Of a DNA stretch of 64,000 bases, positions 962-23,470 are shown in pieces. The stretch lies in assembly GCA_024683775.1 (NCBI GenBank), contig GCA_024683775.1_4106.1; one strand, 5' to 3'. Both the position numbers and the translations under genes were made by a program. The DNA is from a phage. A model generated the notes under the pieces. It saw nothing but the letters and a program-made list of their open reading frames with translations, made no database searches and was not told where the DNA came from. Positions within the stretch are counted from its first letter, which is position 1. Each line of letters begins with the position of its first letter.

Positions 962-2086
962 TTAATTATCTAAGCCACCAATTACACTGAACTGTGTGGT
1001 AACGTCTGAACTATTATCTATGTAAGTTCTTCTACCAACATAATATAGTTGTCCTTTTGCTTGAATAAAAGTTACGGTCCCTGTATTAAATGTTATAATA
1101 TCATTGTATGTAATGTCAGGTGGTAGTGCTGCTGATAACGCAGTAACTTTACTTAATGCAGCACTAGTACTACCATTTATACCAGCAGCAATACTACCAG
1201 TACCATAGAACTTATTATCTTTACCAATGAATACGTTGGCTGATGCTTGTGTAGCTGATGTTATTGCCTTACCAATTTGGAATGCGGTTCCTATGGTGTA
1301 TGGTGTGCTCCTGGCAGCGTCTATGCTTTGTGTATATCCATCCCCTAGCTGACCATTAACTTTGTCACCACATGAGTATAGAGTACCATTGAGGCTGTAT
1401 ATGATCCCACGGTTAGAGAAGCTAACAGCTTCTGCATTAGTCCATACTGGTGCGGTGTATGAGTTTACACGACTCGCGGTAGTTCCTAGACCTAGTATAC
1501 CATATGTGTTATCACCACATCCAAACCATTGCCCAGAACTGTTTTGATAGAACACTGAACGTTCTGTTGATTCCATGCGTACAGCATCCACAGCACCACT
1601 TTTAACGAACGAAGTGGATGAGGATGTAGTACCAGTACCCAATGCACCATAAGTGTTTGTACCAATCGCATAGATTGATCCTAGTGGTGTCATAACACGT
1701 ATGCAGTTATATCCCAATTGAACTTTACATTCAAATAGGTTGTCCCATATTTCAGGAACAGCAGAAAATAAATTTGTAATTTCGAACCATGATGTTGTCG
1801 AACCAGTTAATCCTATACTGCTTTTGTTTCCTAAAATGAAAACAGTTTTGTCCTTCTTAATTATCCATGATGATAGGAAACCTATCTCACAGCTATGAAC
1901 ATTTGATTCTATTTGGGTAATATAATACTTAACTGTGTTATCACCCATGAATGCCGCAGCACCGGATGCAAAAAGGTTTCCAGTTTGTTTATTTAAAATG
2001 TAGTTATTGTTTCCATATACACTAACATCATAAGAACTTTCTTGTTTTTCGTTCCCATAATCAAATAACAATACGAAAGGTAACAT
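962..2086 (-). CDS. RCC1-like beta-propeller repeat protein, array member 1
   Basis: 374-aa ORF; N-term MLPFVLLFDYGN; SD AAGGAGA upstream; repeats like GTNTYGALGTG, GDKVNGQLGDG. Confidence 0.85.
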   Translation of the reverse strand: MLPFVLLFDYGNEKQESSYDVSVYGNNNYILNKQTGNLFASGAAAFMGDNTVKYYITQIESNVHSCEIGFLSSWIIKKDKTVFILGNKSSIGLTGSTTSWFEITNLFSAVPEIWDNLFECKVQLGYNCIRVMTPLGSIYAIGTNTYGALGTGTTSSSTSFVKSGAVDAVRMESTERSVFYQNSSGQWFGCGDNTYGILGLGTTASRVNSYTAPVWTNAEAVSFSNRGIIYSLNGTLYSCGDKVNGQLGDGYTQSIDAARSTPYTIGTAFQIGKAITSATQASANVFIGKDNKFYGTGSIAAGINGSTSAALSKVTALSAALPPDITYNDIITFNTGTVTFIQAKGQLYYVGRRTYIDNSSDVTTQFSVIGGLDN

Positions 2087-2163
2087 GATAAAATCTCCTT
2101 GTGTTATACTTTATTTAATCATTTTATAATGTACAATTTTACAGCGATTTAATTGAGGTACTC

Positions 2164-2814
2164 ATGAATAAAAGAAGTAAGTTCTATCAAGAATATTTCA
2201 CTAAACATAAACGATTCACAAAAAAATACTTTACATCATCCCACCGACCAGTTGCAAGTTACAAACGTCCTAATACTAACTATCTTGCTGGTGGCAAGTT
2301 TAGTGCAAAGTTCGAATTACTTATGCGTGAAAAGAATATCAAGATGCATTACGCAGAGACGAGAAAAAACTCATCAATTATTTGCTCTGATTTTCTTGAG
2401 TACGGTTGCTTAACTTATAAATTCAATGATGTATATTTGTATATTGATGTTGATTGTAACAGTACTCTTATGTTTGAGATTTCAATTCACCCAAATCACA
2501 ACCGTTATATAAACATTAACTTGATTGATAAAGTACTGATTGGTATATCTAGTACTGATGGTGGTGGATTTGAATTTATTGCTTCAAAATATGATGAAGA
2601 TTTCGTACTTTACCCAGTACTTGATGATGTGAAAGATATTCTCAATTCATTAAAAGGAAGTCAATACAAATTACCTGAAGAACAGCTATTTCAGTACTCA
2701 CTTATTCATGATGATATCGAGATATACTTAGAGTGTGCGAGAATCTTGGAGTATCTTTATAATGAACTAACAACAACTGGTAAAGTGACTGCATTCACAT
2801 TATATAATATGTAA
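2164..2814 (+). CDS. hypothetical protein with basic N-terminus and C-terminal EEQLFQYSLIHDD motif (EE-FQ family outlier)
   Basis: 216-aa ORF on opposite strand inside the array; SD GAGG upstream; shares the acidic-aromatic motif with the 55.6-64 kb family. Confidence 0.6.
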   Translation: MNKRSKFYQEYFTKHKRFTKKYFTSSHRPVASYKRPNTNYLAGGKFSAKFELLMREKNIKMHYAETRKNSSIICSDFLEYGCLTYKFNDVYLYIDVDCNSTLMFEISIHPNHNRYININLIDKVLIGISSTDGGGFEFIASKYDEDFVLYPVLDDVKDILNSLKGSQYKLPEEQLFQYSLIHDDIEIYLECARILEYLYNELTTTGKVTAFTLYNM

Positions 2815-2821
2815 AAGAAAT

Positions 2822-2841
2822 GCCAGTACTCAAGTACTGGC
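2822..2841. terminator. hairpin terminator (array cassette)
   Basis: GCCAGTACT-CA-AGTACTGGC palindrome; T-rich tract follows on minus strand. Confidence 0.55.
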
Positions 2842-2847
2842 ATTATA

Positions 2848-21106: not shown

Positions 21107-21114
21107 ATATTAAT

Positions 21115-22263
21115 TTACTGCACAAATGACATATCGACTTCGGTATAATTAAGAACGTTCTGTCCAGCACTACCACCCATTACTACAAATGAAGCACCCG
21201 AATAATATAACTTCGAAGTGTCAGTAAGTATAAGTGAACCAGATGGAGTGCGTACCAAATTACACGAAGTATTAAACGAAGTATATGAAGGAGTATAGGA
21301 GTACTGATTATTATTATTACCAACACCTAATTGCCCAAACCTATTCGATCCAGAAGCATATAGAACTTCATCTGCTTTGACAATATGTGATGCCATGTTA
21401 CCAACACAAGTATATAGAGTATAAACTCCTGAACTCAATAATGTCGGAGTTTTATATTGTATATCAGTAGAAGAGGAAGTACCACCTGTACCAAATTCGT
21501 TCCCATATTGTGCACCGAACTGTTTACCACAAGCGTACAAATTATTATCCGATTTGATAAAAAATGTACTCTGATAACTTACATTAAAATCTATAACATC
21601 CGAAGAAATCATCGTCACCCCAGTAATAGAAGTTTGATTGCCCGTGCCCAACTGGTAGTAATAGTTAAAACCACAACCCCATAAAGTATTATCTTCTCGC
21701 AAATAAATGTTACCAACAGCCTTTTTAACCGAAGTTATAGTATCTACTCTTTTGAATGTGTTAAAAGAATTAATGTTTGTGCCATCACCAAATGATGATA
21801 TGTTCGATATATTGTTAGCTCCACAACAATACAATGTACCATCGTTTGTTATCAAATTCACCTTCATATCATAAAAACTACTCATGTATTTTATATCAGA
21901 AACATTAATACCACTTGATGTTATCCACGTAGTACAGTCCGTCCACAAAGTTTTTCTATCAGTTACACCAGTGAATGCCTTCGTGTTACCAGTGATAAAA
22001 ACTTTTCCAGTACCTTTCTCTTCATACAATTGACAATCACTACTGTTATCTTCCAATAGAACTCGTTTAACATTCTCCGCACAAAGAATAAATTTACTCG
22101 ATGCTACACCTGTACCAGTACCCCAATTCGTCGCAGAAGATGCATACAACTTGTCAGTATAAGTATCATGAAGATACATAGAATCACTGGAATATATTTT
22201 ATAACGACCAGAGTTGGTAGGAGCTTCATTTCCATAATCAAACATTCTTACAAAAGGTAACAT
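21115..22263 (-). CDS. RCC1-like beta-propeller repeat protein, array member 17
   Basis: Start at conserved MLPFVRMFDYGN (22263), SD GGGAGGGAAT; repeats YYQLGTGNQ. Confidence 0.85.
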   Translation of the reverse strand: MLPFVRMFDYGNEAPTNSGRYKIYSSDSMYLHDTYTDKLYASSATNWGTGTGVASSKFILCAENVKRVLLEDNSSDCQLYEEKGTGKVFITGNTKAFTGVTDRKTLWTDCTTWITSSGINVSDIKYMSSFYDMKVNLITNDGTLYCCGANNISNISSFGDGTNINSFNTFKRVDTITSVKKAVGNIYLREDNTLWGCGFNYYYQLGTGNQTSITGVTMISSDVIDFNVSYQSTFFIKSDNNLYACGKQFGAQYGNEFGTGGTSSSTDIQYKTPTLLSSGVYTLYTCVGNMASHIVKADEVLYASGSNRFGQLGVGNNNNQYSYTPSYTSFNTSCNLVRTPSGSLILTDTSKLYYSGASFVVMGGSAGQNVLNYTEVDMSFVQ

Positions 22264-22307
22264 ATTCCCTCCCTTATTCATTATACTATATTTAATCAAA
22301 AAGAAAA

Positions 22308-22326
22308 GCCAGTACTCAAGTACTGG
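22308..22326. terminator. hairpin terminator (array cassette)
   Basis: GCCAGTACTCAAGTACTGGC. Confidence 0.55.
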
Positions 22327-22333
22327 CCTGTAT

Positions 22334-23470
22334 TTAAATTATTGTTGGTAATGGTAATGGTATAAATTCATCACTCGATGGCAAACCATATAACGTAGTT
22401 GCATTTCCAGAATAATACCATCCAGTTGAATCTTGCACTATAGATAGATAGGCTAACGATACCACCTTTGTTATATCATTAAACCCGTGTGGTACTTCTT
22501 TGAATGCAGATGAATATTCAACACCAGGATCACCAGAAGATAGTGTATTGTTAGTACCAGCATAATATAAAGTATTGCCATCTGTGCTTATAGCAAAAGA
22601 AAGAACAGAGTTATTCATATCACTCCACAAATCCCTAAACCTGCCTCTATATCCGGTTAATTCTGTATACGAATATACGTTTGTGGTATTTGAAGAAGAA
22701 TTACCTAGTTGATAATTTCTATTTTGACCTGCTATAACATATCTAGTGATACCATTAGTATCATAATATAATATACCAGAGTTTAATGTTGACATACCAA
22801 CTGCACATTCGGATGCAAATTCGGGAGCAGAGTACAAATTATAAGAAGTTAAATTTGTGCTAGTACCCAATGCTCCAGTATTGCTTATACCACAGCGGTA
22901 GTAACCACCAGTAGTACTAGAATATATAGTACCAGATAGAGAAGTGTAGAATTTTGAAACATTTGACGCAACTAATACAGCATTAACTTTGCTTGTTGAA
23001 CCACCAAATGATTGGTTATTATCATATCCTTTAGCATATAATCTATTATCATTTGTAAGTAATCCTACACAATAATAAGTTATTTTCATTTCACGAACTG
23101 TGCTTAGATTCACTGCACTAAATTGTGTCGTAACATCTTTCCATGTAACAACTTTAGAACTTGTCGAACCACCAGATTCAAACCATTGATCACCACAGTA
23201 GAAAATTTTATTATCTACAGTTAATACAACGCATACTAAATTACTAGCACAAGCAAACTTAACATCATCTCTAACTTTAGTCCACTCGGTTACATTCACT
23301 ATAGTATCAGTTCCTATACCTAATTTGCCATACGCATTATTACCACGCACCCATAATTCATTATCCTCGGTTATTAGTAATAATGAATTAGCACCTGCAA
23401 CAATATCACGTATTTTTAGTTTATCTGGTGCTACGTTCCCGTACTTAACCATTCTTGCAAAAGGTAACAT
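22334..23470 (-). CDS. RCC1-like beta-propeller repeat protein, array member 18 (first transcribed)
   Basis: 378-aa ORF; N-term MLPFARMVKYGN; YGKLGIGTDT repeat. Confidence 0.85.
   Translation of the reverse strand: MLPFARMVKYGNVAPDKLKIRDIVAGANSLLLITEDNELWVRGNNAYGKLGIGTDTIVNVTEWTKVRDDVKFACASNLVCVVLTVDNKIFYCGDQWFESGGSTSSKVVTWKDVTTQFSAVNLSTVREMKITYYCVGLLTNDNRLYAKGYDNNQSFGGSTSKVNAVLVASNVSKFYTSLSGTIYSSTTGGYYRCGISNTGALGTSTNLTSYNLYSAPEFASECAVGMSTLNSGILYYDTNGITRYVIAGQNRNYQLGNSSSNTTNVYSYTELTGYRGRFRDLWSDMNNSVLSFAISTDGNTLYYAGTNNTLSSGDPGVEYSSAFKEVPHGFNDITKVVSLAYLSIVQDSTGWYYSGNATTLYGLPSSDEFIPLPLPTII

Follow-up and report, generated by a model that had tools for sequence, protein, structure and literature searches.

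What role is served by a family of proteins whose only conserved part is their first twelve residues? A 64,000-nucleotide stretch of phage DNA (contig GCA_024683775.1_4106.1 of GenBank assembly GCA_024683775.1; hereafter the window) raises this question. Positions 962-23470 of the window carry a tandem array of 18 gene starts that encode the same 12-residue N-terminal peptide, here called the tag, followed by highly divergent bodies. The window comes from an Escherichia coli jumbo phage of the Asteriusvirus type (121Q/PBECO4/phAPEC6-like). Here, we identify the bodies as RCC1-like propellers by homology and structure prediction, and we find the tag at the head of proteins of other folds in related phages. 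We propose, giving the idea about even chances, that the tag may be a portable virion-incorporation signal on interchangeable binding modules, most likely docking them at an external site.

A conserved tag on divergent proteins

A six-frame scan for the motif M-L-P-F-x-R-[MLI]-x-x-Y-G-N finds exactly 18 occurrences in the 64 kb, all on the minus strand, all at gene starts and all within 962-23470. The first-pass annotation of the window, made from the sequence alone, had described 18 consecutive minus-strand genes of about 370-450 aa headed by an invariant dodecapeptide. The 18 tagged starts stand, but only 16 of the genes are intact (369-449 aa) and two are frameshifted, and the run is not strictly consecutive, since a plus-strand open reading frame (ORF) of 216 aa at 2164-2814 splits the last two genes. 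Nor is the peptide invariant throughout. Among the 18 window tags M1, P3, F4 and G11 never vary and L2, R6, Y10 and N12 are conserved in at least 90%, while positions 5, 8 and 9 vary together, giving two flavours (A..VK and V..FD). Every window tag has K or D at position 9; when all 26 tag variants are considered, that position is K, E, D, Q, N, R or A.

Beyond the tag the paralogs diverge to 16-26% overall identity. Mean pairwise nucleotide identity among the 18 genes is 0.84 over the 36 tag bases and 0.37 over the next 36 bases, and on the upstream side it is 0.43 from -35 to -1 and 0.32 from -70 to -36. Column entropy among the paralogs is 0.44 bits in the tag, the only conserved part, against 2.38 bits in strands and 2.44 bits in loops. 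Variability had been expected to concentrate on loops. That expectation fails among paralogs, which vary uniformly over strands and loops, and holds among orthologs of one member, where entropy is 0.92 bits in loops and 0.54 bits in strands. With 12 residues and no hydrophobic core, the tag was ruled out as a signal peptide or lipoprotein signal.

RCC1-like propellers with the tag predicted outside the fold

The bodies had been read from their repeats as RCC1-type seven-bladed propellers, and Pfam scans, profile searches of the Protein Data Bank (PDB), AlphaFold2 models and Foldseek together confirm this at the level of homology and predicted structure. Among ten array proteins scanned, nine match Pfam WD40_RLD, RCC1 or RCC1_2, with PF00415 or PF13540 above its curated cut-off in eight and WD40_RLD E-values from 1e-7 to 4e-23. 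The tenth, encoded at 5183-6532, matches phrog_4219 (E = 2e-15), and the remaining eight array proteins were assigned to the family by alignment or blastp. In the PDB, a family profile matches HERC1, UVR8, RPGR and RCC1 (best E = 6e-33), and these matches always start at profile position 18-20, past tag and linker.

We modeled one member per tag flavour with AlphaFold2, obtaining about 28 strands. Paralog 12 (9035..10204) reaches a predicted local distance difference test (pLDDT) score of 87 and a predicted template-modelling (pTM) score of 0.88, and paralog 4 (18725..19846) reaches 82 and 0.84. In both models the last blade is completed by a C-terminal strand, at residues 376-382 and 363-368, respectively. 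Foldseek aligns the paralog 12 model with UVR8, RPGR, RCC1 and HERC2 at probability 1.00 and template-modelling scores of 0.65-0.78, and in BFVD it retrieves proteins of PBECO4, GAP32 and the Yersinia and Erwinia jumbo phages, PVP-SE1 gp40 and a Pseudomonas phage tail-fibre protein. The pLDDT stays below 50 over residues 1-12 of paralog 12 and 1-18 of paralog 4. Because of these low values, and because PDB homology starts only at position 18-20, the tag is predicted to lie outside the propeller fold.

The tag on other folds and in other phages

The idea that a constant end carries variable modules is strengthened by relatives of the window, in which Kelch, LamG-like and Gly-rich proteins likewise begin with the tag. 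In phage vB_Ec-M-J, EcMJ_585 is a tagged propeller of the Kelch type (301 aa; PF24681, 94 bits) whose annotation reads virion structural protein; phAPEC6 and 121Q encode a tagged, unannotated Gly-rich protein of 244-245 aa (phrog_4474); and GAP32_002 is tagged and weakly Laminin_G_3-like. Phage CBB lacks any RCC1 member, and all nine of its proteins CBB_536, 537 and 548-554 are tagged, with LamG/ConA-like and Kelch bodies. By these sequence assignments the tag is fold-independent, spanning four fold types (RCC1, Kelch, LamG-like and Gly-rich) and several genera.

A profile of the tag alone, built from the N-terminal 30 residues of all 18 window proteins and searched exhaustively against 1.84 billion representative proteins, gave 55 matches, 52 of them real clusters and nearly all at residue 1; it was far more informative than a word-index homolog search, which gave 8 proteins. 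Forty-four of the 46 tag-bearing clusters scanned are RCC1-like (WD40_RLD), one is Kelch and one LamG-like. Thus, there are at least 44 distinct RCC1 modules, all less than 50% identical to one another. By tblastn the RCC1 family is present in 62 phage records, with one copy per genome in GAP32, Serratia BF and the Erwinia and Yersinia phages, 4-6 in Salmonella phages and 6-13 in most Escherichia phages, counts that come from one query at E up to 1e-6 and so underestimate divergent paralogs. The alignments begin at residue 1, Clostridioides phages excepted. At its genome end, Xanthomonas phage XaC1 carries three copies, in which the tag has the diverged forms MFPIPIISKYGN and MFPIPVISQYGN. A nucleotide-level scan of 121Q confines the nucleotide pattern of the tag to the array locus; 121Q and CBB were the only extra genomes contributed by IMG/VR scans.

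Tagged proteins in published virion proteomes

Virion mass spectrometry (MS) had been put forward as a check on whether members of the array are structural, and published proteomes of phAPEC6, CBB, GAP32 and JP4 do contain tagged proteins. The phAPEC6 virion list of 62 proteins includes gp003, 005, 006, 007, 009, 010, 549 and 551, or eight of the eleven RCC1-like proteins. Seven of the nine tagged CBB proteins (CBB_536, 537, 548, 549, 551, 552 and 553) are among the 55 of that virion, at 9.5-51% coverage. This enrichment has a hypergeometric P of 2e-6 for each of these two phages. GAP32_001, 530 and 531 were detected in GAP32 virions, and JP4_577, 581 and 582 in those of JP4. Of the six CBB structural proteins identified by MS but lacking in GAP32, four bear the tag. 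The 'hairy' phages CBB and phAPEC6 have 9 and at least 12 tagged genes, and in GAP32, for which no hairs have been described, 3-4 were identified.

A hypervariable island in a conserved genome

The array itself is an already known and annotated feature of the genus Asteriusvirus. The CBB paper (2017) recorded multiple RCC1 copies in 121Q (13) and PBECO4, the phAPEC6 paper (2020) counted eleven RCC1-like proteins and speculatively proposed a role in DNA ordering, and the fEgEco12 paper placed RCC1-like proteins among the most divergent between phages of one species. The locus of vB_Ec-M-J holds 14 RCC1 genes and a 15th tagged gene, of the Kelch type (genes 571-585). With such relatives, a 22-kb block built from one family, which the first-pass annotation thought very unusual, is ordinary for the genus. 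The shared tag, by contrast with the array, appears to be undescribed: in the searchable literature we found no mention of its sequence, or of a targeting sequence in RaK2-like phages, and the paralog table of the CBB authors pairs only 536 with 537 and 549 with 553.

By megablast, the array block matches 37 phage records, all of them Escherichia or Salmonella jumbo phages of the 121Q/PBECO4/phAPEC6 type, and the best single place spans at most 33% of the block although local identity is 95-98%. The adjoining flank, 23471-48000 (24.5 kb), is 95.7% identical to vB_Ec-M-J over 100% of the query. This conserved flank, combined with the patchy coverage of the block, marks the array as a hypervariable island inside an otherwise conserved genome. 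Gene by gene, nine of the 18 have a vB_Ec-M-J ortholog at 83% identity or more, and the other nine reach at most 51%; some of the latter are closest to phAPEC6 (73-90%) or to UB, slurp01 and G17. A comparison of copy number across related phages, which had been recommended as a further check, gives a range of RCC1 members from 0 in CBB to 18 in the window.

A proposed model for tag-directed docking

We propose a model that builds on the propeller fold, the position of the tag outside it, its recurrence across folds and genera and the turnover of the genes, together with a virion association taken from the literature. The array would be a repertoire of small virion proteins of a jumbo myovirus. 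Behind the 12-residue tag (M-L-P-F-x-R-[MLI]-hydrophobic-x-Y-G-N), each protein would have a short linker rich in Pro and then a propeller complete in itself. The tag would dock every module on one common site of the particle, most likely an external one such as a fibre, hair or baseplate adaptor, and the phage would thereby display many lectin-like heads that, acting as adhesins, could give wider or stronger adsorption to variable host surfaces. Most array genes form their own transcription unit, with terminator, promoter-like box and ribosome-binding site, and the conserved gene boundaries (tag plus intergenic cassette) would probably serve as recombination joints.

We favor docking over targeting to the capsid interior in the manner of phage T4, judging it roughly twice as probable. 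This preference arises because the tagged proteins have lectin-like folds, are not basic and lack a conserved Glu cleavage site after the tag; because homologs occur at the C-terminal tips of long virion or baseplate proteins, PVP-SE1 gp40 belongs to a tail-fibre cluster and the RaK2 tailspike array offers a precedent; and because the hairy phages CBB and phAPEC6 are richer in tagged genes than GAP32. In PHROG profiles, homologous LamG-type domains form the C-terminal ends of virion or baseplate proteins of 1000-6000 aa, and the part of phrog_4219 matched by the RCC1 members is its C-terminal half (419-794 of 867). The gene for the RCC1-like propeller PVP-SE1 gp40 stands last in a tail-fibre cluster. 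RaK2 has a multi-tailspike array with shared N-terminal peptides of its own at the right end of its genome map, a correspondence drawn by map end and not by gene-by-gene synteny. In branched assemblies of receptor-binding proteins (RBPs), secondary RBPs of K1E, K1-5, SP6 and KP34 attach via conserved N-terminal peptides of 7-11 residues (Latka et al. 2019, PMC6872550); the same scheme has been modelled for the jumbo phages K64-1 and RaK2 (PMC6872550), and docking peptides have been validated experimentally (PMC13352976).

Two families of N-terminal peptides can be read in the RaK2 tailspike array (L015, record 322764-345682). The tailspike and fibre genes 526, 527, 529 and 530 share the N-terminus M-x-N-x-L-I-Q-P-K-G-S-V-S-K-E, and genes 531-534 share MSLSNLSSSN, a second docking-peptide-like family; neither family carries the MLPF tag. 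The partner that receives such peptides in K1-5, SP6, KP32 and K64-1-type phages is a branching domain. In phAPEC6, gp245, gp247, gp250c, gp253 and gp256 were searched for a docking partner by sequence against Pfam and the PDB, and no branching (T4 gp10-like) domain was found. Over its last 180 residues the fibre protein gp256 (L017 23073-28598) matches the solved structure of a 'putative tail fiber protein' (PDB 9cuy/9mjn, E = 4e-30), the only structural lead among the large virion proteins of that phage.

Several points weigh against the docking model. The known RBPs with docking peptides are trimeric spikes, and the array models are single-chain propellers. The external location on the particle is one that we infer, and neither gp245 (3323 aa) nor gp256 (1841 aa) of phAPEC6 yields a Pfam domain or a match resembling T4 gp10. 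The RCC1 members of phAPEC6 were detected at low MS coverage, with 1-5 peptides, in a virion list that includes plainly non-structural proteins such as thymidylate synthase and RecA. The promoter-like box of the array differs from the TATAAATA box of the phAPEC6 capsid, scaffold and baseplate genes. Finally, synonymous codons in the tag are far more uniform than usage in the gene bodies, so part of the conservation within the array lies at the DNA or RNA level.

The strongest alternative, which we consider unlikely, is that the tag is a T4-type capsid-targeting sequence (CTS) binding the prohead scaffolding core, with the propeller, Kelch and LamG proteins packed in the head and ejected with the DNA as diversified, protein-binding inhibitors of host defences. 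The T4 CTS, about 10 residues at the extreme N-terminus, is the sole conserved part of highly diverse, polymorphic internal proteins (PMC3012670), and the array matches it in its short constant N-terminus, hypervariable bodies and polymorphic locus. The head genes are T4-like, with a gp21-like prohead protease beside the scaffold and major capsid genes; the inner body of phAPEC6, of unknown composition, is a possible cargo site; detection in virions by MS is equally compatible; and in five of the nine CBB tags positions 7-9 are [LMI]-x-E, similar to the T4 protease site. However, most tags have K, D, Q, N or S instead of Glu at position 9, and the linker after the tag contains no conserved Glu, which speaks against a general cleavage site. 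The proteins are near-neutral, beta-rich and lectin-like at 25-45 kDa, not small and basic, and elsewhere homologous domains lie distally, at the ends of baseplate or fibre proteins.

Stepping back from the site of attachment, we lean slightly towards a broader joint claim: that throughout the clade, and whatever the fold behind it, the tag would act as an address label and suffice for loading any protein on or in the virion of RaK2-like jumbo phages (Asteriusvirus, Mimasvirus and Salmonella, Erwinia, Serratia and Yersinia relatives, with a diverged form in Xanthomonas phages), and that the array would be an arms-race arsenal swapped at the tag. If true, this would account for the presence of at least 44 RCC1-like clusters and of Kelch and LamG proteins in jumbo-phage virions, and would give more than 100 deposited phage genes a testable role in place of the misleading name 'chromosome condensation regulator'. 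A further gain would be a 12-residue handle for loading designed proteins on jumbo-phage particles, comparable to the T4 CTS and the Klebsiella docking peptide. As the fastest-evolving locus separating near-identical therapeutic E. coli jumbo phages, the array is a candidate determinant of host range or anti-defence. The more surprising version would have the propellers packaged and injected as host-defence inhibitors, in a manner reminiscent of the terminal multigene host-range families of poxviruses.

Peptide and nucleotide constraints on the tag

Is the tag conserved as a peptide at all? A second alternative, improbable in our estimate, holds that its 36 constant bases are kept mainly for nucleic-acid reasons, either translation initiation or a homology block for gene conversion or cassette exchange, and that the peptide has no targeting role. 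Codon choice within the array favors such a constraint: TTA is used at 17 of 17 tag sites (48% in gene bodies), CCT at 17 of 18 (35%), AGA at 16 of 17 (40%) and GGG at 13 of 18 (11%). The two tag flavours behave as linked haplotypes, the annotators of phage UE-S1 marked direct repeats of about 104 nt at gene boundaries, and Arg6 is AGA in all seven Arg-bearing CBB tags although AGA makes up 16% of CBB Arg codons genome-wide. Yet the peptide is preserved with other codons in CBB (CCA/CCT/CCG, TTC/TTT, TAC/TAT), in GAP32 and in XaC1, where the tag is recoded throughout. Conservation stops sharply at codon 12, and it persists in the five window genes that lack the upstream cassette, with a nucleotide identity of 0.83 in the tag against 0.31 upstream. 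A purely nucleic-acid explanation also leaves the virion enrichment of tagged proteins of four folds unaccounted for.

Retention of the peptide with other codons across genera, and in genes without the cassette, shows selection on the peptide itself. The uniformity within the array points to concerted evolution or a nucleotide constraint at the 5' end, in addition to peptide selection, and fits a tag that serves as a recombination joint. In the CBB and GAP32 tags Arg6 is always encoded by AGR, with AGG in GAP32, which suggests a nucleotide-level preference at the 5' end of the mRNA.

The cassette that precedes 13 of the 18 genes comprises a hairpin (GCCAGTACT..GTACTGGC) and T-run followed by TTGATTAAATATAGTATAATGAATAAAGGAGG and the ATG (we also designate it the AAATATAGTATAAT cassette). 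Its core 16-mer occurs 10 times in the window (0.7 expected), before array genes only, and terminator-like sites number 26 (7.7 expected). Canonical sigma-70 promoters before the array genes were considered and rejected, as they are not enriched (92 sites, 103.5 expected) and the TATAAT box has no -35 box at 16-18 nt. Neither strand of the 64-kb window contains the T4-type late-promoter octamer TATAAATA, which in phAPEC6 precedes the major capsid, scaffold and several baseplate-region genes. The cassette does contain (G/T)TAAATA, one mismatch from TATAAATA, and the CBB authors' putative late promoters include the same variant (GTAAATAC, CTAAATA) in front of four tagged genes, CBB_537, 551, 552 and 553. 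Going by these motifs, late expression of the array genes is plausible.

A third alternative, that the array proteins are DNA-condensation proteins organising the packaged 350-kb genome, is very improbable and is not supported here. It draws on a name carried over from eukaryotic RCC1 into GenBank and PHROG, where array genes appear as 'regulator of chromosome condensation', 'DNA condensation protein', 'HERC1' or 'RPGR', and on the similar speculation in the phAPEC6 paper. RCC1 function needs Ran and nucleosomes, which are absent here. The array proteins are acidic to neutral (median isoelectric point 5.7, net charge -11 to +5), their copy number ranges from 0 to 18 among phages of similar genome size, CBB packages 356 kb without any RCC1 member, and their extreme sequence turnover is unlike that of a DNA-packing scaffold. 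For these genes, 'regulator of chromosome condensation' is a transferred name and not a function. RCC1-type propellers are closed by strands from both termini, and the suggestion of the first-pass annotation that the conserved N-terminus is simply this closure ('velcro') strand fits that architecture, but we reject it as the least credible of all: the tag is of low confidence and not a strand in either AlphaFold model, PDB homology starts beyond it, the last blade is finished by the C-terminal strand, and the tag also stands on ConA/LamG-like and Gly-rich proteins without propeller-family matches.

Array genes and neighboring features

The genes of the array are listed in Table 1 together with an example of the cassette.

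Table 1. Features of the array in the window. For each paralog the higher coordinate is the position of the tag ATG.
Feature	Coordinates	Strand	Description
Paralog 1	22334..23470	-	378 aa; tag MLPFARMVKYGN; RCC1-like propeller; orthologs at 96-98% identity in UB, slurp01 and G17
Example intergenic cassette	22264..22333	-	terminator hairpin GCCAGTACT..GTACTGGC, T-run, TTGATTAAATATAGTATAATGAATAAAGGAGG
Paralog 2	21115..22263	-	382 aa from tag ATG; tag MLPFVRMFDYGN; vB_Ec-M-J ortholog 96%
Paralog 3	19918..21045	-	375 aa; tag MLPFVRMFDYGN
Paralog 4	18725..19846	-	373 aa; tag MLPFVRMFDYGN; second AlphaFold model
Paralog 5	17479..18651	-	390 aa; tag MLPFVRMFDYGN
Paralog 6	16273..17403	-	376 aa from tag ATG; tag MLPFVRMFDYGN
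Paralog 7	15060..16262	-	400 aa; tag MLPFARMVKFGN; no upstream cassette, tight junction with paralog 6
Paralog 8	13942..15051	-	369 aa; tag MLPFVRLFDYGN; no upstream cassette
Paralog 9	12693..13872	-	frameshift after about 43 codons: tag and 59-aa ORF, then ORF 12693-13769 in another frame
Paralog 10	11444..12622	-	392 aa; tag MLPFVRMFDYGN
Paralog 11	10214..11371	-	385 aa; variant tag MIPFARIVKYGN with several synonymous changes
Paralog 12	9035..10204	-	389 aa; tag MLPFARMVKYGD; first AlphaFold model; no upstream cassette
Paralog 13	7794..8963	-	389 aa; tag MLPFVRMFDYGN
Paralog 14	6533..7722	-	split by 1-nt insertion: 264-aa ORF 6928-7722, last 131 codons open in the +1 frame to 6533
Paralog 15	5183..6532	-	449 aa; tag MLPFVRLFDYGN; most divergent member, no Pfam match; no upstream cassette
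Paralog 16	3994..5112	-	372 aa; tag MLPFARMVKYGN
Paralog 17	2848..3981	-	377 aa; tag MLPFARMVKYGN; no upstream cassette
216-aa ORF inside array	2164..2814	+	phrog_34359, function unknown
Paralog 18	962..2086	-	374 aa; variant tag MLPFVLLFDYGN; vB_Ec-M-J ortholog 99%

The two interrupted genes differ in character. The frameshift site of paralog 9 is not a homopolymer, and an independent database protein (P0009) reads identically truncated; because of this shared reading, paralog 9 is probably an inherited pseudogene and not a local sequencing error. In paralog 14 the insertion falls after codon 258 or thereabouts, in the same alignment column as in phAPEC6 gp007, and the split recurs in 121Q and a metagenomic relative, L004 (a truncated ORF of 269 aa in each), and in P0055 (264 aa); the vB_Ec-M-J ortholog is intact at 392 aa. 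The 131 codons downstream of the shift appear to be still under selection, since their frame stays open and their synonymous to nonsynonymous counts (27:25) have the same ratio as those upstream (41:38). The shift window holds the rare Arg codons CGG and AGG (in R-T-I-R), and from the sequence programmed +1 frameshifting or a two-piece protein is possible.

A second tandem array adjoins the first and is transcribed divergently from it. At 23575-28372 (+) about 21 back-to-back ORFs of 59-81 aa share the pattern M-N-x-x-K-E-[FY]-Y ... Y-x-x-[VL]-L-x-L-I, with 38 pairs matching by blastp at E <1e-3, and the metagenomic relative (L004/L005) has a similar run of about ten ORFs of 62-70 aa at the corresponding position, a likeness of size and place. 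Each array is interrupted by a plus-strand ORF with a basic N-terminus: the RCC1 array, on its opposite strand, by the 216-aa ORF of Table 1, and the small-ORF array by a 219-aa ORF at 25575-26234 (phrog_29152, function unknown). L004 has an opposite-strand ORF of 216 aa at the same place as the former. The sign of the GC skew switches near 28 kb, at the flip in gene orientation, and no tRNA genes were found in the 64-kb window.

Comparison with known systems

In fold, the array proteins belong with the RCC1-like domain (RLD) superfamily (RCC1, UVR8, RPGR and HERC1/2; PF00415, PF13540 and PF25390), with which they share the seven blades and the G-x-N-x-x-G-Q-L-G signature. Unlike those proteins, they have no Ran or chromatin context, bear an unrelated 12-residue tag and are associated with virions. 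Among other Asteriusvirus arrays (121Q 234-248, PBECO4, phAPEC6 gp001-010/549-551 and vB_Ec-M-J 571-585), which are deposited with 6-15 copies and discussed in the literature, the window array agrees in locus, family, orientation and flanks; it differs in its 18 copies, the most among the inspected genomes, and half of its genes lack an ortholog above 51% identity even in its closest relative, vB_Ec-M-J.

Two systems offer precedents for the tag. The T4 CTS on internal proteins IPI-III and on Alt resembles it as a conserved extreme-N-terminal peptide on diverse bodies, in phages with T4-like head genes. The T4 sequence ends in a gp21 site (L/I-x-E), whereas array tags have no such conserved site, and T4 internal proteins are small and basic, whereas array proteins are neutral, beta-rich binding folds. 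Branched RBPs (the K1E/K1-5/SP6 hepta- and undecapeptides and the KP32, KP34, Menlow and PhiK64-1/RaK2 groups) likewise place a very short extreme-N-terminal peptide on unrelated neighboring virion proteins. As in the array, the bodies are variable and horizontally exchanged, and in the branched systems they serve multi-specific host recognition. Two related jumbo phages, RaK2 and K64-1, follow this scheme, and the RaK2 tailspike array lies at the same genome-map end. The array bodies differ from branched RBPs in being single-chain propellers or lectin-like proteins of 25-45 kDa, not trimeric beta-helix depolymerases, and in number, with up to 18 modules per genome.

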